Source: an uncultured Nitrospiraceae bacterium (lineage in GTDB: Bacteria; Hydrogenedentota; Hydrogenedentia; Hydrogenedentales; SLHB01). From it: a stretch of 64,000 nucleotides of DNA. The translations under genes were made by a program, and so were the position numbers. The DNA lies in NCBI GenBank assembly GCA_964493915.1, contig CAZBQH010000200.1, forward strand, positions 12,182 through 76,181. The letters run 5' to 3'. Every line of letters starts with the position of its first letter. The stretch's first letter is position 1. Below the pieces are notes generated by a model. The model was not told the origin of the DNA. It ran no database searches and worked only from the letters and a program-made list of their open reading frames with translations. Below, piece by piece: positions 6,059 to 64,000 of the stretch.

Positions 6059-6486
6059 TGCGATTTGGACACCGCGGCCCAACGGAGGCCGAAAACATCC
6101 CCTTGGCGCCCCTCATTGATATTGTGTTCCTGACCTTGGTCTTTTTTATGACCACCTCCGTCTTTTCGACCCTCGAAAGCGAGATTGATATTACCTTGCC
6201 CACTGCGGACAGCGCCGTCCAGACGGAGCGCTCGCGGGGCGAAATCTATATCAACGTGCGCCAAGACGGCCAGATCGTGCTCAACAATCGCGAGCTCACC
6301 ATCGATGAGTTGCAGGATGTTCTGAACCGCGTAGCGGCCTTGGTGCCGGGCGGCGCAGTGATTGTGCGGGGTGACGAGAAGGCGATGCTGGGCCGTATTG
6401 TCGCTATTCTGGACTGCTGCCGGAAAGCCGACATCCAGAACGTGAAGTTCGCTGCGCTTAGAGCAGCCCCGGAAGACACGGAGTGA
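6058..6486 (+). CDS. ExbD/TolR biopolymer transport protein
   Basis: 142 aa. The N-terminal motif PLIDIVFLTLVFFM is typical of ExbD/TolR. A single TM is followed by a periplasmic domain. Confidence 0.8.
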   Translation: MRFGHRGPTEAENIPLAPLIDIVFLTLVFFMTTSVFSTLESEIDITLPTADSAVQTERSRGEIYINVRQDGQIVLNNRELTIDELQDVLNRVAALVPGGAVIVRGDEKAMLGRIVAILDCCRKADIQNVKFAALRAAPEDTE

Positions 6487-6487
6487 T

Positions 6488-8833
6488 ATGCAAGCACTGC
6501 GCTTTGGAATCGCCGTATCGTGTATCTTGCTTGCAGTGCAGAACCCGGCGATTGCCCAGGCGTCCTCGCCGGAACAGGACCAGTTTGACTTTGCGAGCGC
6601 TCTCTTCCAACACGGTTTTTTCGACCTGGCGGCCCAGGAATTCCACAGTTACATCGAGCATTTCCCTGACAGTCCGCAAATCCAGACCGCCCTGTACCGT
6701 CTTGGCGAGTCCGAATACGCTCTGAAAAACTACGAGGCCGCGCTTTCCGCTTTCTCGAAAGTGCTCGAGTTGAATGTCGGCCCGGAGACCCGGCAGCGGT
6801 CGCTCCTGCGAAAAGGCGAGATTCTCTACCGGCTTGCCAGGCACGCCGAGGCAGCGGCAACGCTCGAGCACGTGACAGGGGCTGAAGTCGATCCTGAGAT
6901 ACGCAGCGGCGCCTTGTACTATCTCGGCAGGGCTTTTCTCGATGCAGGCGATAGCGCGCGAGCGGCCCAGGCCCTCGATACGCTGATCGAGGCGCTACCC
7001 GACAGTCCTCTCGTGCCTTACGCACGGTATCAACTGGCGTTTGCGAAGCTTGCGCTTGGCGAATCCGAGGCAGCTGCCCTTCAATTCTCAGAGGTCGCTT
7101 CGTCCAATGCCGAGGCGGCCCTGTGCATCGCGGCGCGTTTCCGTGCGGCGGAAACCTACGACAAGATTGGCTGGTACGATGCAGCCGCCCTCGCCTATAA
7201 ACAATTGCTCGACGAGTCTCCCGAGAGTTCCTATGCGCAGCGTGCCCTGTATGGCTATGCGTGGGCGTTGTACCGGGGTGGCAAGTTCTCGGAAGCGGCG
7301 GAAGCAGCAGCCGGCTATCTAAGCAAGTATCCCGACGCCCCTGAGGCAACCGGCACGCTGTACCTGCAAGCGAATTGCCTTCAGGAGTTGAAGCGCTATC
7401 CCGAGGCGCTGGCCCTTTACCAAAAGGTCCGGGAGAAGCAGCCGGATTCTGAATTCGCAGTGCGCGCCGCGCATCAGACGGCCTGGACCCTCTACTTCAG
7501 CGGGGATGCCACCGAGGCAAAACGACTGGCGACGGCCTTTCTAAAAGACTATAAAGAAAACAAACTTGTGGGAGACGCGGCTTTCTTGCTTGGCACAATC
7601 CTCATCGACGAGGGCAACTACAGCGACGCCTACGATGCGTTCCGGCTGGTGGCGGAGAAGTATCCGGAGAGCAAATTCGGACCCGAAGCCCTGTACAAAG
7701 CAGGGGAATGCCTTGCCCAGATGGGACGCACCGGCGAGGCTGCCGAGCTTTTCGAGAATTTCGTGAAAGCCTATCCGTCCAATCCTCTTGCAGAGGAGGC
7801 TATGCTTCGTGCAGCAGACGCGGAATTCTTCTCGGCCGCTTTCGACGATGCCATCGCCAAGTACAAGCAAGTGCTCGAGTCGAGTCCCGATCCACAGGTG
7901 GAGCGCGATACACTCCATCGGCTCGCGGCAACTTACCACAACAAGCGCGATTTCAAGGCCAGTGCGGCAGTATTTCAGACGCTGCTGGAAAAGTTCCCAG
8001 AGAGCCCCTATGTGGCTGAAGCCCATTTCCGCATTGCCGAATTCCAGTTGCGGGAACAACAGGCGCCGGTGCCAGCGATTGAATCCTACCAGAAAGCGTA
8101 TGACTTGGACTCCTCAGGCCCCTTTGCAGGCAGGGCGGTTAAAGGCCTTGGCCTGGCCCGATACGAAACGAAGGACTACGATGGAGCAGCCGAGCATTTC
8201 CTGAAAGTGATAAGGGAATTTCCGTCCGTATCGCTTAATGAAGAGGCCTATGCATGGCTTGGCCAGCGGCTCTATGACCAGCAACGTTGGAACGACGCAG
8301 CTATTGCATTCGGCGCACTCCTGAAGACCAGCCCGAACTACCCGAATCCGGAGAGGGTACAGTTCAAGATAGCCCAATGCAGCGAGCAAGCCGGCGAGCT
8401 TGATACCGCTCTCAAACGCTATAGCGAGGTAGCGGCGACTGCCCCGCTAAGCGCCTCCGCCGTCGAGGCGCGCTTCCGCATGGCCAAAATATACGAGGCG
8501 CAGAATAAGGCCGACGAGGCCATGAGGCTTTACGAGCAAGCCGCCAGCACGAACACGGGCGACATTGCGGCGCGTGCCCGTTTCAGGCTCGCCGAGCTGT
8601 ACGAACAGAAGGGCGACTTCGAGCAAGCGGCAAAGAGCTATATCCTTGTCGCCATACTCTTTTTGCATCAGGAGTTGTCCCCGGAGGCATACTGGCGTGC
8701 GGGCCAGTGTTTTGAGAAGATGCAATCCGTCGACTCCGCGGTAAAGGCCTATCGTGAGCTTGTTGCGGAGTTTCCCGACAGCGCTCAGGCAGCCAATGCT
8801 GCGCAGCGCCTCGCCGAACTGAACAAGGGTTGA
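6488..8833 (+). CDS. tetratricopeptide (TPR) repeat protein, secreted/periplasmic
   Basis: 781 aa. Signal peptide MQALRFGIAVSCILLAVQNPAIAQA. Repeated 34-aa A/Y/L-rich TPR-like units run through the whole length. Its start is 2 nt after the exbD stop. Confidence 0.75.
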   Translation: MQALRFGIAVSCILLAVQNPAIAQASSPEQDQFDFASALFQHGFFDLAAQEFHSYIEHFPDSPQIQTALYRLGESEYALKNYEAALSAFSKVLELNVGPETRQRSLLRKGEILYRLARHAEAAATLEHVTGAEVDPEIRSGALYYLGRAFLDAGDSARAAQALDTLIEALPDSPLVPYARYQLAFAKLALGESEAAALQFSEVASSNAEAALCIAARFRAAETYDKIGWYDAAALAYKQLLDESPESSYAQRALYGYAWALYRGGKFSEAAEAAAGYLSKYPDAPEATGTLYLQANCLQELKRYPEALALYQKVREKQPDSEFAVRAAHQTAWTLYFSGDATEAKRLATAFLKDYKENKLVGDAAFLLGTILIDEGNYSDAYDAFRLVAEKYPESKFGPEALYKAGECLAQMGRTGEAAELFENFVKAYPSNPLAEEAMLRAADAEFFSAAFDDAIAKYKQVLESSPDPQVERDTLHRLAATYHNKRDFKASAAVFQTLLEKFPESPYVAEAHFRIAEFQLREQQAPVPAIESYQKAYDLDSSGPFAGRAVKGLGLARYETKDYDGAAEHFLKVIREFPSVSLNEEAYAWLGQRLYDQQRWNDAAIAFGALLKTSPNYPNPERVQFKIAQCSEQAGELDTALKRYSEVAATAPLSASAVEARFRMAKIYEAQNKADEAMRLYEQAASTNTGDIAARARFRLAELYEQKGDFEQAAKSYILVAILFLHQELSPEAYWRAGQCFEKMQSVDSAVKAYRELVAEFPDSAQAANAAQRLAELNKG

Positions 8834-55871: not shown

Positions 55872-55972
55872 CCAATCGCGGGCATACTCCTTGCCGCGCG
55901 TTCTTAAAACAGCGATATGCTACTATGGTGTTCGATGTCGGGGCGATAGCTGCCGGCAAGGAAGGATCGGCC

Positions 55973-57811
55973 ATGGTTGCGAACAGACAAGCTCTTATGT
56001 CTTTGCGTCTTGCTCTATCTCGTCGGGAAAAGGCATTGTCGCTCGCCCAGGAATCCAAGGAGGCCTTGACCGCGGGCCATATTGACAAAGCGCGCCATGA
56101 CATGCTGCAAGCCTTTTACTCGGGCCATCTCCAATCCGCCGAAAACCGCCTGCGCGACCTGCGCCAGGAGCACGCGAAGCGAATCGCCGAACTCGACACC
56201 GTTCTTGAGGAACTGCAAACACGTCAGAAAGAGGTGCAGGAAGGTGCAGCTTCCGGCCTTGTGAGGGTTTCTGAAGTGAATCGCCGGCATCGCAAACTTG
56301 CGAAACGAATCGGCGAGCTGAAAGAAGAAGCGGCCTTCGAGCGGCGCTTAGTTGAAGCCGATTCTCCTGATGCAGTGGGCGGTTTTATCGATATGCCTCT
56401 CGATGACTACGCCGCTGAGGCACCGTCGGGTCCTGCGGCCTATTCCACGGAGGAATGGCTGTTCACATGCGTGCTGTCCCTGCTCATGCCCTTCGCCTTG
56501 CTCTTGCCGTGGGTCATCGTACTCGGGGTCTCGTGGCGTCTGAGCGACTTGCCGGCCTTTCTTGAGATGGTGGGGTTGGAAGAGGTGCCGGAAACCGCTC
56601 GTTTCGTGTGGGCTGTGTATGCATTACTTCCTTTGGTTGGGTTGCCTTTCGCATTGTGGCGCAACCTCCAGAAGTCAGGTGCTTGGTTGATAGTCGTAGG
56701 CGCCGCCTGTACAGGCGCCGTTGTCACTCCGCTGGCAGCTATAGGCATCAATCCCAACATCGAGGCGTCCATCGATCCAATCCAACTTTTTGCGGGATTG
56801 CGAATCGGATCTCTATCTTACCTCGGCGGCGCGGTTCTGATGATGCTCTTGGGCGCACGCCGGATACGGTTGAGCAAAGGACCCCTGAAGTCTTCCTGGA
56901 AAGGCGTAGTGGTCCTTGTGGTCTCGGCTACGGTTCTTCTCCTGTTGGCAGGCGCCCTTTTCTCGACGGCGCCCGGTCACGCCTGGATTGCCATGGAAGC
57001 GGGCCCTGCACGAGAAGCAGGGCGGAGCGTGCGGCTTCACTTCGAAAACACCGGCACGCATACGGCTACCGTGCATCTGCCTTGGCCGGAGAATCGCGCG
57101 GCCGTAATCGAGGCGGGCCAGGAGAAACGTCTTTTCGGCGTGACAGTATGGGTGCGTGAACGGGGCGAGCGCGATTTCCATATGTATCCGCACTCGGATG
57201 TCTGCTGGGATTTTGGTAGTGTGCCTGCCCCCGAGAACAACGGCTTTCAACTCGAGCACGGCGTTTCCGTGCAGGCTCAATTTCACTTGGGCAGGTTGGA
57301 GACCGAGGGGATAGACGCCCTGCAGGTACGTTTTCGTCTGACCCGGGGCGACGGCCACCTTCTTCAATCTCTAGATGTTGACGTTCCGGAAATCAGTGCC
57401 GCAAGCGCCCGGCCTGCACCCCTCGCGGGGATGCCGGACATTGCTTCTGCACCCCAGCCTCCGCAATCGGAGACGCTTTCCCCGCCGCCATCCGCTATCG
57501 CAACAGAACAAACCGGCGCCTCTTCTGCAGAAACCGGAGACAGGGGATCGCCCGTGTGGTCCGTCGCTTTCAAAGGCACCATTGGAAACAACGCGATCTT
57601 AGCGATACGCGAAGCGGCTGATGGGAAAGTCGAGTCGCGGTCCGTCGCGGCCGGCGACACGGCAACTGGAGACTGGTTGGTCGAGTCTATTGAAGCGTCC
57701 GGTGCTGAAGTTGTGCTTCGCAATCGCTATACCGGGAAGCGTGTCACGTTGAAGCGGGGAGCTGGAGAAAGCCCCTTGCCCGACACAAAAGCTGCCTCGA
57801 GCGGCGGGTAG
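55973..57811 (+). CDS. hypothetical membrane protein with N-terminal coiled coil
   Basis: The track starts at 55925. ATG 55973 has AAGGAAGGA 6 nt upstream. About 120 aa of coiled coil, then a block of several TM helices, then a C-terminal soluble region that is Pro/Ser-rich near the end. Confidence 0.45.
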   Translation: MVANRQALMSLRLALSRREKALSLAQESKEALTAGHIDKARHDMLQAFYSGHLQSAENRLRDLRQEHAKRIAELDTVLEELQTRQKEVQEGAASGLVRVSEVNRRHRKLAKRIGELKEEAAFERRLVEADSPDAVGGFIDMPLDDYAAEAPSGPAAYSTEEWLFTCVLSLLMPFALLLPWVIVLGVSWRLSDLPAFLEMVGLEEVPETARFVWAVYALLPLVGLPFALWRNLQKSGAWLIVVGAACTGAVVTPLAAIGINPNIEASIDPIQLFAGLRIGSLSYLGGAVLMMLLGARRIRLSKGPLKSSWKGVVVLVVSATVLLLLAGALFSTAPGHAWIAMEAGPAREAGRSVRLHFENTGTHTATVHLPWPENRAAVIEAGQEKRLFGVTVWVRERGERDFHMYPHSDVCWDFGSVPAPENNGFQLEHGVSVQAQFHLGRLETEGIDALQVRFRLTRGDGHLLQSLDVDVPEISAASARPAPLAGMPDIASAPQPPQSETLSPPPSAIATEQTGASSAETGDRGSPVWSVAFKGTIGNNAILAIREAADGKVESRSVAAGDTATGDWLVESIEASGAEVVLRNRYTGKRVTLKRGAGESPLPDTKAASSGG

Positions 57812-57827
57812 CGTTTCGCAGACGGCC

Positions 57828-59894
57828 CTAGCTCGACGGCGTAGGCATCCCGTCCATCGCCCCAGTGTCTGGGAATACGGTGATTGCGGCCGCGAGGCAG
57901 CATGCTGCATTCAGTGTGTCCGGGTACACGGTGGGCGCCAGAGGATCAGCCTGGGCGGCTGCCCCTGCCCCTGACCCTCTAGCCATGGCGTCTCGCATGT
58001 ACGGCCCAAGACGGGCGAGTTCCTTCGGTTCGTCCCGCCAGAGCATTGCCAGGTTCAGCAGAGTCTTGGCCGTTTCATGGGGCGCCATCTCGTCGAGGCC
58101 CTCGAGAGCCTTCTCGGCAAGGTGTTCCCATGGCGCCGATCGAGGGCGGCCGGGCCGGGCGACATCCGCGGCCCAGTAGTCAAGAGCGCCTGGAACCGTC
58201 CAATGTCCCGTGCCGTCTAGGCAATGGTAGTTGATAAGCGCGCGTAACTCGCTGCGTCTTTCATTCCATTCCTCTTGCTTGAAGCCAAGGGCGTCGGCGA
58301 TTTCGATGGCCGCGCTGATTCCGATGTAGGTAACAGCGACCAGGCCGTTGCTCTGAGCGTCGCGCCAACGTGCAGGGTCGAACGAGTGAAGAGGCATGCG
58401 GGTCCTTAGGTCGCACCAGCGGACCAGAAAGTCTGCACCTTGCTGAACGCTCGGCCAGACACCCTCAAGAAAGGCCCGCCGCCGTTCTTTATCTAAGCGG
58501 CGGCTGTGCTCGGAAATGTCCCAGAGCGTCCAGGCAGTGCCGTCTACCTCGAGTACCGGATAAGGCAACGCCTCCGTGCCGTCGGCGTAGACCGTGGCCG
58601 GCACAGAGCCGGCAGGTCGGCCCGGTTGTGTCGTTTGGCGCACAAGCCCGGCCCCGAAAAGGACATGCCGCTCTGCAAGCTCGGGGAATCCCGCTTTATC
58701 GAGGGCCAACGTGATCCATGGGGCATGCCGCGCGAAGTGCATCGCCAACGGCGGCTGAGGAGTAGGGTTGCGCACAACAGCGCCCGTTTCCCGATCCATG
58801 GCGCTTAACAGCGTCATCAAGCAGCCTTCGGCCATGGCGCGAATGGCAGGATCCGGCGAGGCAGGCAGTGTCGCCTTGGCCTGAACCGCCGCGATGCGGC
58901 TTCGGGCGTCCTGCAAAAGACCAGCCCAACCTTGCACACAGGCTGCGGCCAGCCGCTCCGATACGGTCTCCCATGTTGGGCCAAAGGCCGTGTAGACGGT
59001 CGCTTCGCTCAGGGAACTGCCCGAATCGTCCTCGCGCTGCGTGGGCGGGATTGCTATGACTGAACTGCAGGTGCCCACCGCAGCCTGATCCTTTGCCAGC
59101 TTGCCCGCACTCGCCTGCGTGTAGGGCGATGCAGGCCCGGCGTCTGGTCCGCACTGGAACGCCTCCGCACCTGCGGAGGACGTATAGGCGATCCACACTC
59201 CCTCGCCGAAGGCGCGCCACGCTTCGCTTTCTGCCTTAGTCCTGATTAGCTCTCTGGCCTGTTGCCAGGACCTGCTGTTCAGGTCCTCGGGCCGGAAGTG
59301 GCAGATGCTCGTCCCAGTCCCCGTTGTGAAGACTGCAAAATCGTTCGCGCTGTCGAAAGCCCAGTCAGCGAGCGGCCATTCAGGGAGAACACGTGTGGCG
59401 GGGCAAAAGTTGGCGATCCAAAAGAACGTCTGGACCGGCCGGGCCGACTGTACGCGGATATGCACCCCGAACACGTCGTGCTCGGGGTGTACAAGAAGCT
59501 CCTGGGTGGCCGTAAAGTCCGGGTCCTTTGACCGCGTTGTCACCCGGAAGACGTAACCTGCCCGATCGGTTGACGCCGTTGCGTCGCCTGTGACCCCATT
59601 CAGCCAAAGGGTATTGTCGTCTATCCGCAGACCCCAGAACAGGCCATCTGCCGGCAGGGCGCCATACTGGGGCAGATTGCGGGAACGGGTGCGATAGCTA
59701 AGCTGGTCGCTGAGACCGGGGCTCGGCCAGCGGCACACTGTGATCCGCCCTGCGCCGTTCGCGCTAAGGGTCAACCGCCCATTGCCAAGAACAATCGCAG
59801 TATCCGGCGGACCAAAGATTTCTTCGAGAACGCCATACGACGGGGGTGCCGCGGCGAATGCCGCAAAAAAGAGGAGAGCAAGCGGCAATATCAC
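57828..59894 (-). CDS. secreted hypothetical protein, possible (alpha/alpha)6-barrel glycoside-hydrolase-like fold
   Basis: 688 aa. Signal peptide MILPLALLFFAAFAAAPPSYG, an N-terminal beta-rich region and a C-terminal helical region. Family assignment is tentative. Its start overlaps the upstream gene by 4 nt. Confidence 0.4.
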   Translation of the reverse strand: MILPLALLFFAAFAAAPPSYGVLEEIFGPPDTAIVLGNGRLTLSANGAGRITVCRWPSPGLSDQLSYRTRSRNLPQYGALPADGLFWGLRIDDNTLWLNGVTGDATASTDRAGYVFRVTTRSKDPDFTATQELLVHPEHDVFGVHIRVQSARPVQTFFWIANFCPATRVLPEWPLADWAFDSANDFAVFTTGTGTSICHFRPEDLNSRSWQQARELIRTKAESEAWRAFGEGVWIAYTSSAGAEAFQCGPDAGPASPYTQASAGKLAKDQAAVGTCSSVIAIPPTQREDDSGSSLSEATVYTAFGPTWETVSERLAAACVQGWAGLLQDARSRIAAVQAKATLPASPDPAIRAMAEGCLMTLLSAMDRETGAVVRNPTPQPPLAMHFARHAPWITLALDKAGFPELAERHVLFGAGLVRQTTQPGRPAGSVPATVYADGTEALPYPVLEVDGTAWTLWDISEHSRRLDKERRRAFLEGVWPSVQQGADFLVRWCDLRTRMPLHSFDPARWRDAQSNGLVAVTYIGISAAIEIADALGFKQEEWNERRSELRALINYHCLDGTGHWTVPGALDYWAADVARPGRPRSAPWEHLAEKALEGLDEMAPHETAKTLLNLAMLWRDEPKELARLGPYMRDAMARGSGAGAAAQADPLAPTVYPDTLNAACCLAAAITVFPDTGAMDGMPTPSS

Positions 59895-61330
59895 GGTTTT
59901 TCCCCGCTTGAATGTCTCGAGTGTGATGCAAGATGCCCCGTGAAATCGAGGGAATCCTTCTCTACGGTTGCGGCGATTTCGAGAGCGCCCATCTGACCCA
60001 GGGCGCGAAACTTCGGGATGACCTTCTCCTCAATCTCCTGTACGCCTGTTTCAGGCAAAAGCTGGCTCAGAGCAGCATGGCGCGCCAACTCTGAGAAAAC
60101 CTCGGAAGTTTCCTTCCAATCCACGCGCAATGCTACATCCGCATCAATCTGTTCAAGAACAGGCTCATTTCGTGCAAGCTCCGCCATCAAAGGCTCCTGG
60201 CTCGCCGCGAGCCAATACTCCTCCTTGTTACACAGGCACAATAGCAAGGCCTCGCCAATGAGCGGCGCAACGACTCCGGGCGCTCCATGCCACTCGTGGG
60301 GCAGAGCGTCCAGTTCAGCCGCAAGCGGCGCCAATGGATGATCACCAACGCCGGATTGGACCCGGCGCATCAACAGCGCCGCCTTTGGAACAGGCGTGGT
60401 CTGCGACGTGTCCACGCCCGTAATACCGAACGAGCACTCCGCCACGCCTTGGTCCCAACCCTCGGGCAGGCCTTGAATGTCCCATGAAGCCCACATCGCC
60501 CACGCCGCCTTTACGACGGCATCCACGACGCTGCAATCGCGGAAAGGCTCGTACAGAATCTGTACAACCGATGCGATGTCGCGCCACCGTGTCGCGGTGA
60601 CGGTGAGAAGTGCGGAGGAGGGCCAAGGCTTTGTCATCGTAAGGGGGACTTCGCGGTCCGTACAGACGCCCGTAATCTGGCCCGTGACGGGGAGGCCCTC
60701 TGCCGCGCGAACCACGAGTTTTGTTTTCGGTGTTTGTTCCCAGCGAAACGAAACTGTGTCATGCTGTTTCGGACGCTCCGCCAAGTAAGCCGGCGCGCTC
60801 AAACACTGCTTGACATACCTTTCAGACTCAGAGAATATAAGCGATCCGTCGCGCCACGCATAGTACAAGCCGCGAAACGTGGGGAGGGAACTGCCGGTTG
60901 GCGCAGGCCCAACCAACCGTTTCAGGAAAAGAACGGAACGGAGCAGAAGCCCAGGGCGCACGCAGGCGCCTGACTGGTTCTCTGACCCAGCGATAAGAAG
61001 CCTCGGGCCGAGCCATAGACTCCAACGAGAAGGGGTGGGCCGGATTCCATAGGCCAAACGGACGGCCCGTTCGAAATCGCGCAATGGCGCGGGAGCTTCT
61101 TTGTTGAAGGCGCGTACAGCCTCGGTGGCAGCGGCCATACGCCAGAATCGGGGGAAGTCGTGGGCAGCGAAAGACCATGCAGCGTCTCGAGGCGCATACA
61201 ACGCGCCTGGCGCCGTTTTCAGGCCCGCGTCAACATGATTGAAGAGAAATACCGCAGCTATGCATGCTGCTAAGAACAGCCACCGCCGCGCCGTACGCGC
61301 CATTCTCGACGTCGCCTCGCGCAATCGCAA
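59891..61330 (-). CDS. hypothetical membrane-anchored protein
   Basis: 479 aa. N-terminal TM (WLFLAACIAAVFLF), then a large soluble domain. No recognisable catalytic motif. Confidence 0.45.
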   Translation of the reverse strand: MRLREATSRMARTARRWLFLAACIAAVFLFNHVDAGLKTAPGALYAPRDAAWSFAAHDFPRFWRMAAATEAVRAFNKEAPAPLRDFERAVRLAYGIRPTPSRWSLWLGPRLLIAGSENQSGACVRPGLLLRSVLFLKRLVGPAPTGSSLPTFRGLYYAWRDGSLIFSESERYVKQCLSAPAYLAERPKQHDTVSFRWEQTPKTKLVVRAAEGLPVTGQITGVCTDREVPLTMTKPWPSSALLTVTATRWRDIASVVQILYEPFRDCSVVDAVVKAAWAMWASWDIQGLPEGWDQGVAECSFGITGVDTSQTTPVPKAALLMRRVQSGVGDHPLAPLAAELDALPHEWHGAPGVVAPLIGEALLLCLCNKEEYWLAASQEPLMAELARNEPVLEQIDADVALRVDWKETSEVFSELARHAALSQLLPETGVQEIEEKVIPKFRALGQMGALEIAATVEKDSLDFTGHLASHSRHSSGEKP

Positions 61331-61361
61331 CGCTTACCTTGCCGTTCTGGAGACAGACGTT

Positions 61362-61652
61362 TCAGGGATTGCCAGCGGGACTCGCCTTTTCCCAGACAGC
61401 CTTTCTGTCCCGTTCACGCCGCTCCTCGACCGAGGCCAGTTCCCGGCTCAGCCGGGCCTGGGCCTGCTGCAGCTCCTCGACGTTGGCGGCGTCCGCGATT
61501 TGGGCCTCGAGCGTCAGCCGCACTTCAGCCGCTTGAGCGTCATACTTTCTGTCTATTTCGGCCATCTGTTCCCGTTGCTCGTCGCTCAGTTTCTGGACGG
61601 GTCCCTGTTCCTTCTCGAGCCGTTCCATAGCAAGCTCATAAGCGCTTTTCAT
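61362..61652 (-). CDS. hypothetical small coiled-coil protein
   Basis: Start placed at MKSAYELAMERLEK, with GAGGAGAGA about 10 nt upstream. 96 aa, highly charged and helical (E/Q/R-rich). The track's N-terminal extension runs into the upstream gene. Confidence 0.4.
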   Translation of the reverse strand: MKSAYELAMERLEKEQGPVQKLSDEQREQMAEIDRKYDAQAAEVRLTLEAQIADAANVEELQQAQARLSRELASVEERRERDRKAVWEKASPAGNP

Positions 61653-61668
61653 GGCGTCATGTCTCTCC

Positions 61669-62166
61669 TCAGATTCTGAATTCGTCTTCCAGGACGCTTG
61701 TGATGAAACGCTCGATCGAGATCGGGTAGTAGCGACTGTCAGGAGTGACAATCACCCCCGTCGTGATGTCTTCCTGGCGTTCCAGTTCGTCCAGTGCCAG
61801 GCTCAGGAGCTGGTCGACGGACCGAGATGTGTGTCTAACCTCAATATGCTCCGACTTGCAATCGACCGGCTTGCCCCGAAAGCCCAGAAAACCAAAGATG
61901 CGGCCCAGCAAAGCGCGATCGACATTCTCCTCGCCGAAAATGTCACCGTAACTTGGCTGGTAATGCGTGGGGCGGATGACAAAACGCGGCGAGACCTGGA
62001 TCTTGCCCCGCACCTCGACGGACTTGTTCTCTTCCTTGAGGGCGCTGCCTACACAGATGTAAGGGAGCTCATGATAGCCGCTCACAATGCCGTACGTCGG
62101 TCTGCGGATGATTTGCGTCCGCTGGAATATTTCCCGCATTTCGTCGCTGTCCAGCATGTCAATCAA
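61669..62166 (-). CDS. hypothetical protein
   Basis: 165 aa with no recognisable motif. It lies 16 nt upstream of the coiled-coil gene on the same strand. Confidence 0.45.
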   Translation of the reverse strand: MIDMLDSDEMREIFQRTQIIRRPTYGIVSGYHELPYICVGSALKEENKSVEVRGKIQVSPRFVIRPTHYQPSYGDIFGEENVDRALLGRIFGFLGFRGKPVDCKSEHIEVRHTSRSVDQLLSLALDELERQEDITTGVIVTPDSRYYPISIERFITSVLEDEFRI

Positions 62167-62257
62167 TTATCTCCCAAGCGATGCCATGCTTTCTGATGGT
62201 GTGTCACACACTCAGAGCCATACATCAGTTTATCGAATCGGGACGGCGGACGGCAAC

Positions 62258-62716
62258 TCATTTCGCGTCGCCGCTTACAATCAGTTCCAGGACGCGGAGA
62301 TGCTGGCCCGACGAGCTGGTTTGGCATCTCACCTCAACTTCATCTCCTGCATCCAAGGCGTCCCAATCGGTACGGCCTACTCGCACAACCGTTTCTCGCT
62401 TATCGCCTTCATCCAGCGTTAGCCGTAGAGTGATCAGGTGTTGCTGTTTGCCTTTTAGGCCTTGCTCCCATTGCTTCGATACGACCCGTCCCGGCAGAAT
62501 CCGGACGGGTCTGCCCTGATATCGGAGGAAGTCCTGCGACAGTCTAGCGAACACGAGCAAAGCTGTAATAGCAAGAACGAGCGATATGAGCAGTAAAAAG
62601 CTCCGGCGCGCTAGGCGCTTCGTGGATCTTTCCACGTCAGCCAAGGCATCTATGTGCTTGCGTTGCCACGCCCCTTGTCGGTGCGGTTCTCGGGGCACGT
62701 ATTTCGTTGGGGTCAT
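62258..62716 (-). CDS. hypothetical single-pass membrane protein (DUF3592-like size/topology)
   Basis: 152 aa. A basic N-terminus, one TM (FLLLISLVLAITALLVFA), then a beta-rich C-terminal domain. Confidence 0.4.
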   Translation of the reverse strand: MTPTKYVPREPHRQGAWQRKHIDALADVERSTKRLARRSFLLLISLVLAITALLVFARLSQDFLRYQGRPVRILPGRVVSKQWEQGLKGKQQHLITLRLTLDEGDKRETVVRVGRTDWDALDAGDEVEVRCQTSSSGQHLRVLELIVSGDAK

Positions 62717-63009
62717 GAGAATCGATCCTCGATCGAACTCTAGCCTTCCGGCAGACGATTGGGCAAGCCCATAGGTTTACAACGCCTCGAGGGTCTGCCG
62801 TTCCAAGACACTTGGGCGGCCATTATCATTTCTCGCTCTAAAGAACCCAAAACAATTGGACAGTTCAGTGAAACATCAGCATTATCCGAGTTTCGCCGTT
62901 CTGGTCGCGAGTTTTGCATTGCCTGCGCCGAGGTCCATAGTTGAATCGCCCGGACTGCATATAAGATGATTGCACTGAAGCGAAGAGCAACCTTCTATCC
63001 AGTAGGCAT

Positions 63010-64000
63010 ATGAACATTTTTGTCGCAGGCGGCGGACGGGTCGGATTTCACCTTGCCCGCCTTCTAAGCATTGAGAATCATGATGTAACGGTCATCGAGC
63101 AGGGCGCCGGCCCTTTCGAGCAAGTGGATTTTGCGCTAGACGTCCGCACCATTCTCGGAAATGCCGCCAGCGTCTTGCTTCAGCAAGAAACGGGGGTCGC
63201 TGACGCGGATCTATTTGTCTCGATGACAGGCGCCGACGAGATCAATCTCATTGCGGCCGCAACAGCCAAGGGACTCGGGGCCAAGCAGGTTGTTGCAAGA
63301 GTAGACGACCTGGTCTATATCGAGAGCAACATCCTTTACGAGACGATCCTGGGCATCGACTACATACTTAGCCCTAACGCACTTTCGGCACTGGAAATCG
63401 CCAAAAGCATCGAGTCTCCTGGAATGGTGGCGGCCGAAGAGTTTGCCCGAGGATTGGTCCAGGTGCGGCAGCTCCGGGTATCGCAATCGCCTACGACGAA
63501 CGGGAAGACGCTGCAGGATGTCCTCCCCCCAGGGAGCGGGGTATTGCTCGGTCTGATCACCAGAAAAGGCGTAGCCGACATCCCGCACGGCGACTCGGTC
63601 GTTGAACCGGGCGACTTGGTCACGCTCATCGGCCGGCGCGATGCGATGCCGCATGTGCAATCCCTTTTCCAGGGGACGGAGCAAAACCTGAAGAATGTCG
63701 TCATCATGGGGGGGGGCCAGATCGGGATGCACCTGGCGCAAGTCCTCGAAACCCGGCGCCGTTCGGTCAAACTCTTCGATCTCGATATGAACCGATGCAA
63801 CCTCCTTGCCGGCAAGTTGCACAAGACCAAGATTGTCTGCCGCGATGCAACGGCGCGAGGCGCCCTTGATCAGGAAAACGTAGAAAGCGCGGATGTTTTT
63901 GTGGCGACCACCAACGACGACGAGCGGAATATCATGGCGAGCGTTTTGGCCAAGGAGGTGGGCGTCGGGCACGCCATCGCGGTGGTTCACCAACCGGACT
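63010..64000 (+). CDS. trkA: Trk potassium uptake system protein TrkA (two RCK/TrkA-N domains), 3' end beyond window
   Basis: Not in the track because no stop falls inside the window. ATG 63010 gives MNIFVAGGGRVGFHLARLL (first Rossmann GxGxxG); the second RCK domain shows VVIMGGGQIGMHLAQVL. The frame is open to the window end. Confidence 0.8.
   Translation, partial: MNIFVAGGGRVGFHLARLLSIENHDVTVIEQGAGPFEQVDFALDVRTILGNAASVLLQQETGVADADLFVSMTGADEINLIAAATAKGLGAKQVVARVDDLVYIESNILYETILGIDYILSPNALSALEIAKSIESPGMVAAEEFARGLVQVRQLRVSQSPTTNGKTLQDVLPPGSGVLLGLITRKGVADIPHGDSVVEPGDLVTLIGRRDAMPHVQSLFQGTEQNLKNVVIMGGGQIGMHLAQVLETRRRSVKLFDLDMNRCNLLAGKLHKTKIVCRDATARGALDQENVESADVFVATTNDDERNIMASVLAKEVGVGHAIAVVHQPD

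Follow-up and report, generated by a model that had tools for sequence, protein, structure and literature searches.

Layout and conservation of the cluster

Five consecutive open reading frames (ORFs) on the minus strand were analysed in a window of 64,000 nucleotides (nt) taken from contig CAZBQH010000200.1 of assembly GCA_964493915.1 (positions 12,182 to 76,181, forward strand); the window means this whole stretch, and coordinates refer to it. The ORFs occupy positions 57828-62716 and were numbered g1 to g5 in transcription order from the ORF list:
62258-62716, minus strand: g1, 152 amino acids (aa), ATG start
61669-62157, minus strand: g2, 162 aa from an ATG, or 165 aa if read from a TTG at 62166
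61362-61652, minus strand: g3, 96 aa from an ATG lying inside a 129-aa TTG ORF
59891-61330, minus strand: g4, 479 aa from a TTG start; an ATG at 61303 gives 470 aa
57828-59894, minus strand: g5, 688 aa, GTG start

The spacers g1-g2, g2-g3 and g3-g4 measure 91, 16 and 31 nt, and the stop of g4 and the start of g5 share 4 nt (GTGA), which bears out the layout described in an earlier, sequence-only reading of this DNA. Database copies begin at the ATG at 62157 for g2 (162 aa; P0016) and at the ATG at 61303 for g4 (470 aa; P0286), and these are probably the true starts. All five genes are more than chance ORFs: many homologues were found for each of g2, g3, g4 and g5, and six positional homologues for g1. 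Per-position GC content was higher at position 1 than at position 2 in all five genes, with GC at the third position (GC3) of 0.59-0.71. As a control, a 181-aa ORF antisense to the cluster (61651-62196) gave 0.68/0.40/0.57, against 0.67/0.43/0.59 for g1. Since this antisense ORF scores nearly as g1 does, per-position GC lends the genes no independent support, least of all g1, and since it fails to separate them from a shadow ORF their reality rests on the homologues. The control ORF runs on the plus strand across g2 and the start of g3 (GC3 0.57, compared with 0.71 for g2 and 0.59 for g1); it was taken as a shadow ORF because it is antisense to the strongly conserved g2, its composition not settling its status.

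Homologues of g5, g2 and g4 come almost all from metagenome-assembled genomes of Candidatus Hydrogenedentota, and the window is itself part of a genome of this phylum. A pattern scan for the g5 family in species-representative genomes returned 15 loci, and three further loci (L105-L107) were reached through g2 homologues. Twelve of the 15 scan loci are labelled Hydrogenedentota or Hydrogenedentes, the other three Nitrospirales or Nitrospiraceae. These three (L007, L015 and L018) carry the typical Hydrogenedentota cluster under their Nitrospirales or Nitrospiraceae record titles, as does one protein (P0298) under a Bathyarchaeia label; all such labels are probably binning or taxonomy errors. 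When the window proteins were compared by tblastn with L001-L018, made up of the scan loci and L001-L003, g2, g3, g4 and g5 were found in this order on one strand, genes being missing only at contig ends, and the gene calls agreed with the tblastn order. Two of the three loci reached through g2 likewise read g2-g3-g4-g5, while L105 reads g2-g4-g5. Thus g2, g4 and g5 are common to all 20 loci (the window and 19 others), g3 is present in 17 of the 18 other loci with DNA over its position (absent from L105) and g1 in 7 of the 20. Compared with the window proteins, the homologues are 59-69% identical for g2, 43-56% for g3, 28-37% for g4 and 25-41% for g5. The spacer between g2 and g3 varies from 8 to 68 nt across loci, and the 4-nt overlap of the g4 stop with the g5 start recurs in 12 of the 20, which suggests translational coupling. 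When flanking ORFs were clustered none was universal: pyrG was found in 7 loci, trkA in 5 and an extracytoplasmic function (ECF) sigma factor, a few kilobases upstream of the cluster, in 6. The cluster is best explained as a genuine operon that Candidatus Hydrogenedentota have inherited vertically. The sequence-only reading had proposed a five-gene unit and had pointed to gene-neighbourhood conservation as the check; the check showed the order to be kept, and the unit stands for g2-g4-g5 in every locus, with g3 lost once and g1 confined to a minority.

Several loci depart from the common arrangement. In L105 (8001-11744) g2 is followed by g4 and g5, which are the most divergent of the set (28% and 25% identity, respectively). 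A 484-aa ORF lies between the g2 (6235-6726) and g3 (8257-8541) homologues of L010 (6786-8240) and splits the operon; read from its sequence, it is a putative DDE-type transposase of an insertion sequence (IS) element. A fusion of g3 with g4, considered for L001 (6220-8004), L012 and L016, was rejected: the two are in the same frame but one stop codon stands between them, and tblastn had run through it. In a sub-clade the slot of g1 is taken by a gene of 476-541 aa (L001:4282-5712, L003:4255-5715 and equivalents in L012, L014, L016 and L018). In L001 and L003, the two tested against Pfam, this gene matches PF03417 (AAT, Ntn-hydrolase type), and in the same two, where gene calls exist, it ends 4-5 nt before g2. 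By clustering, five loci have a PF03417 (AAT-like) gene as the next gene before g2, and an ORF in L016, alike in size and position, suggests a sixth.

The encoded proteins

Topology was judged by hydropathy and charge, without a dedicated signal-peptide predictor. By hydropathy the earlier description of g1 as a single-pass membrane protein, g4 as membrane-anchored and g5 as secreted holds. None of the five proteins gave an above-threshold match in Pfam or NCBIfam, in keeping with their having been called uncharacterised.

The g5 protein consists of an N-terminal hydrophobic, signal-like segment (residues 1-23), a GH15-type beta-sandwich N-domain, which is its most conserved part, a linker and a predicted (alpha/alpha)6-type domain. 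Its residues 234-558 match TIGR01577, the NCBIfam model for the GH15 'oligosaccharide amylase', at E 3.1e-15 with 55.8 bits against a curated cut-off of 820.7, and all 14 of 14 g5 relatives match the same model (best E 7.7e-24), all far below the cut-off; on these scores the similarity is one of superfamily level only. Sub-threshold matches to PF09137 (Glucodextran_N) were obtained for 8 of 11 family members (best E 1e-4) and for the consensus (E 2.6e-4). The Pfam GH15 model PF00723 matched none of the Hydrogenedentota g5 proteins, being found only in the distant relatives P0013 and P0015. Searched against the PDB, the g5 profile gave MmpH (7qsj) as best match (E 2e-4, g5 residues 423-574); a match to glucoamylase 1lf6 (E 0.028) spans the end of the N-domain and the linker, and the linker region of cyclic beta-1,2-glucan synthase (Cgs) was matched at E 0.001. 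The glycoside-hydrolase-like fold that the sequence-only reading had suggested is supported by TIGR01577 and Glucodextran_N, and specified as GH15-like.

Catalytic positions were followed through three distant relatives, P0013-P0015, which are 22-25% identical to g5 in full-length alignment and bridge it to Pfam GH15; their gene contexts are unrelated to the g1-g5 cluster. These proteins carry W-x-R-D, I-E-D-D and G-E motifs, which we take to be the substrate-binding pair, general-acid motif and base of GH15 enzymes. Alignment of the g5 family with them by hhalign gave a probability of 100% and an E of 1.8e-54, ending at g5 residue 565, before the base region. In both the hhalign and the MAFFT alignment F505-[N/D/Q]506-P507 of g5 stands opposite I-E-D-D and x-x-R-x opposite W-x-R-D; position 506 is Asn in six, Asp in three (the window copy included) and Gln in two of 11 members. 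The presumed base segment is deleted in 4 of 11 (P0002, P0004, P0005 and P0012), and the rest share no conserved Glu there, though g5 may have a base at another place. By sequence alignment neither the general-acid Glu nor the Arg-Asp pair of GH15 is seen in g5, and the usual catalytic residues seem to have been lost, in agreement with the earlier remark that no clear catalytic signature is present. Against the PDB, with g5 and the distant relatives together or the latter alone, the partial alignments obtained (1lf6, Cgs, MmpH and 8ic6) miss the catalytic positions. By these comparisons g5 is a predicted-secreted descendant of the family-15 glycoside hydrolases, and a GH15-superfamily homologue rather than a demonstrable GH15 enzyme. 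A literature search for Hydrogenedentes together with glycoside hydrolase returned nothing specific.

The order N-domain, linker, catalytic-type domain is that of prokaryotic GH15 proteins (glucoamylase, glucodextranase, TIGR01577 and the GH15 trehalases). Unlike these enzymes, g5 has the R-D and x-E-D/E motifs replaced, a C-terminal base region that is not conserved, a predicted signal peptide and probable translational coupling to a membrane-anchored partner. MmpH, a methylmannose polysaccharide hydrolase, is built as an (alpha/alpha)6 barrel whose nearest structural neighbours are GH15 and GH125 (PMC9883506). It illustrates that the catalytic acid can be shifted within the clan, and differs from g5 in being mycobacterial and a barrel only (373 aa), with no N-domain. 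The match between the two misses Asp47/Asp50 and Glu262 of MmpH, so that equivalent residues of g5 cannot be assigned.

From its hydropathy, g4 has a short basic tail, an N-terminal hydrophobic anchor (residues 17-37) and an extracytoplasmic domain of about 440 aa. Neither its sequence nor its profile matched an entry of the PDB, and no consistent Pfam match was found among 28 members or with their consensus. Assignment to DUF3352 (PF11832) was considered and rejected: it was matched by 1 of 16 members at E 0.014, and this was not reproduced in the 28 members or the consensus. A profile search of 5.8 billion proteins recovered only 23 orthologues of g4, none with a Pfam domain. Judged by these searches, g4 is an orphan family found so far only in Hydrogenedentota.

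The g1 protein starts with a basic tail and has a single hydrophobic segment (residues 35-64); its C-terminal domain is beta-rich. No homologues were found in the loci by tblastn at E 1e-3. In L004, L007, L009, L010, L015 and L106, however, the small ORF that immediately precedes g2 encodes a g1 homologue of the same architecture; identity is 21-24% over the full length and 24-30% in BLAST local segments. Pairwise E values to the window g1 are 6e-8 to 8e-7 in four loci and 0.002 in L004; the L010 protein has no direct match to it and joins through L007 and L009, and a hidden Markov model (HMM) of the family recovers six of the six homologues. DUF7489 (PF24315) is matched by 6 of 7 members with a best E of 7.7e-5, all below threshold (18.9 bits for the window g1, cut-off 27). 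Like the g1 family, the single-pass proteins of DUF7489 and DUF2500 carry a small beta-rich domain after their one membrane segment; these families are themselves without known function. On this evidence g1 is an accessory, fast-evolving member of the cluster.

Neither g2 nor g3 has a hydrophobic segment, and a cytoplasmic location is predicted for both. Of the genes in the cluster g2 is conserved best; it belongs to an unnamed family with 467 close homologues, the 120 listed being 62-100% identical and none carrying a Pfam domain; an exhaustive profile search gave 127 clusters at 50% identity. Members labelled Methylomirabilota/Rokubacteria and Fibrobacterota place the family in at least three phyla. 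In 80 Rokubacteria-type metagenome loci, the best 80 of 566 matches, g2 is 85-100% identical and stands after an O-methyltransferase gene and an HMGL-like gene, with no g3-g5. On soil contigs of Rokubacteria/Methylomirabilota type the g2 homologue follows a PF01596 O-methyltransferase gene by 4 nt (L057:7430-8498, L089:7428-8498 and L075:5657-6725). In three other genomes the neighbours of g2 are unrelated to each other; a genome labelled Fibrobacterota has g2 between ComEC and NUDIX genes. Small ORFs that follow g2 in other phyla were considered as g3 and rejected, one being Flp-pilin-like and the other unrelated. A structure of g2 predicted from a shallow alignment (30 sequences, 62-93% identical) had a predicted local distance difference test score (pLDDT) of 41, and the AlphaFold model became confident once relatives from other phyla were added to the alignment. 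No solved structural relative of this model was found, a viral fold library gave no match, and a sequence search of the PDB also returned nothing; DUF1491 proteins (PDB 2n6e/4goq and 2knr) and RNase H-like/ASKHA-type alpha/beta domains were among the nearest comparisons considered.

The g3 protein is a charged helical protein of 90-96 aa across the family. An alignment of 16 orthologues shows a strongly conserved N-terminus, MKSAYELAMERLEK..GP..KL(S/T)xxQ. Its L(S/T)xxQ motif, set in helical, charged sequence, is common to g3 and to CpxP/Spy (PF07813). In CpxP and Spy, which have signal peptides and are periplasmic, the motif occurs twice. In g3 it occurs once and a signal peptide is lacking, and the match may reflect coiled-coil composition. 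The window protein and the consensus match LTXXQ (PF07813) at E 0.007-0.008 with 17.3-17.5 bits, against a cut-off of 24.3; with PF07813 below threshold and no N-terminal hydrophobic segment, membership of g3 in the CpxP/Spy LTXXQ family was rejected.

Interpretation of the cluster

The preferred account, put forward tentatively, is of an operon specific to the phylum, in which membrane-anchored partners accompany g5, a remodelled, GH15-like protein of the periplasm that binds or handles glycan. In it g5 would be exported to the periplasm and act with g4, anchored in the inner membrane, and with g1 where present, and these proteins would act on some glycan at the periplasmic side of that membrane. 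Since g5 seems to be without the usual GH15 active-site residues, binding or handling is more likely than classical hydrolysis; most likely, g5 would be a glycan-binding or glycan-handling component of the envelope, any chemistry being non-canonical and not that of a glucoamylase. An ancient stand-alone protein, g2 would have been placed by the phylum at the head of the operon, and may tie some step in the cytoplasm to the pair in the periplasm.

Five points weigh against this account. Since g5 or g2 served as the query for the loci, the sample says nothing on how often the cluster is absent. Co-transcription of the cluster is a prediction. Both the predicted (alpha/alpha)6 barrel of g5 and its apparent loss of catalytic residues are drawn from sequence alignment and from the GH15 W-E-E and R-D motifs. 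The predicted cytoplasmic location of g2 and g3 and the independence of g2 elsewhere weaken the idea of a single machine. In the barrel region of g5, D367, D512 and D659 are invariant, so that g5 may yet be an enzyme.

The last point leads to the first of two alternatives, both of which are judged unlikely. Here g5 would work in the periplasm as an active glycoside hydrolase, or as a phosphorylase-like enzyme, by means of a rebuilt site. The operon would then trim or catabolise an envelope or storage glycan, with g4 anchoring or presenting the substrate. In its favour are the robust GH15 homology over residues 234-558, the conservation of H463, R375 and R419 beside the three invariant Asp residues, and the Asp with which the window copy faces the presumed general acid in the alignment. 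GH65 and GH94 enzymes, moreover, have no base and use phosphate in its place. Among related clan members, GH125 uses Asp as the acid (PMC9883506). On the other side, the acid position holds Asn in six, Gln in two and Asp in only three of 11 members, the R-D motif is without its Asp, the base region either cannot be aligned or has been deleted, and no conserved sugar transporter or kinase neighbours the cluster among the loci.

The second alternative, held to be equally doubtful, is conserved synteny without shared function, in which g2, and perhaps g3, would be cytoplasmic housekeeping proteins that merely share a transcript with an unrelated envelope pair, g4 and g5. It draws on the occurrence of g2 alone in unrelated contexts (in Methylomirabilota, in the Fibrobacterota-labelled genome and elsewhere), on its far higher conservation (59-69% identity, against 25-41% for g4 and g5), on the IS element between g2 and g3 in L010 and on the absence of g3 from L105. 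It has to contend with the survival of the g2-to-g5 order through divergence of g4 and g5 to 25-40% identity and through fully reshuffled flanks, which is unusual where functions are not linked.

A more ambitious version of the preferred account is improbable. It would make the cluster a phylum-wide trans-envelope module, in which g5, derived from GH15 with its site rebuilt or disabled, the anchored g4 and g1, and two cytoplasmic proteins, including g2 with a fold that lacks a solved relative, would carry out or sense a step of envelope glycan biogenesis specific to Hydrogenedentota. The sequence-only reading had suggested an envelope-associated complex. With g2 and g3 predicted to be in the cytoplasm and g2 occurring without g3-g5 in other phyla, a single such complex of five proteins exceeds the evidence, and the data fit an extracytoplasmic set of g1, g4 and g5 that is predicted to share its transcript with two cytoplasmic proteins.

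That the cluster serves in anti-phage defence or belongs to a mobile element, which several small uncharacterised proteins (one of them coiled-coil) and weak, coiled-coil-type PADLOC matches of g3 (E 0.02-0.08) might suggest, is highly improbable: no PADLOC match was significant and g1, g2, g4 and g5 had none at all, no viral structure matched the g2 model, the cluster shares the uniform GC content of the window, the position next to pyrG and kdsB is stable in several genomes, and the phylum-wide presence fits vertical inheritance.

We know of no well-studied cultured representative of Hydrogenedentota, so that operons kept throughout the phylum offer one of the few ways into its cell biology. 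To our knowledge no member of the cluster is a characterised protein, and the gene combination has not been described before. The g5 family would add to the GH15 superfamily a new and strongly diverged branch whose usual catalytic residues are, as aligned, replaced, and proteins of its type should not be called glucoamylases in the annotation of carbohydrate-active enzymes (CAZymes). Two orphan families are added with g4 and g3, and g2, a strongly conserved cytoplasmic family of 162 aa with a confident predicted structure and no solved neighbour, is a reasonable target for structural genomics. Of the five proteins only g5 can be recognised, as a divergent member of a familiar superfamily. Current understanding is not overturned, and no measurement suggests an unexpected mechanism.

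Flanking DNA and neighbouring genes

Three features adjoin the cluster:
62717-63009: divergent intergenic region, 293 nt between g1 and the plus-strand trkA-like gene
63010-64000, plus strand: trkA-like NAD-binding potassium-uptake gene, running off the end of the window and named from a reading of its translation
55925-57811, plus strand: 628-aa neighbour, a predicted multi-pass membrane protein convergent with g5, with a coiled-coil N-terminal region, four hydrophobic segments and a C-terminal domain

The intergenic region is likely to be the promoter region of the operon. No convincing match to a sigma-70 consensus was found in it, the promoter scan being at chance level; terminator-like matches occurred at chance frequency only, and no Rfam family was found in 57000-64000. 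A trkA-like gene is divergent from the cluster in L004, L010, L012 and L016 as well. The 628-aa neighbour ends 16 nt from the stop of g5 and is preceded on the plus strand by pyrG and kdsB. It may be a functional associate of the cluster, not a member of the operon. Homologues convergent to g5 were found in seven to eight loci (L001, L003, L011, L012, L016, L018 and L106), and in L106 the homologue is kept without an adjoining pyrG.

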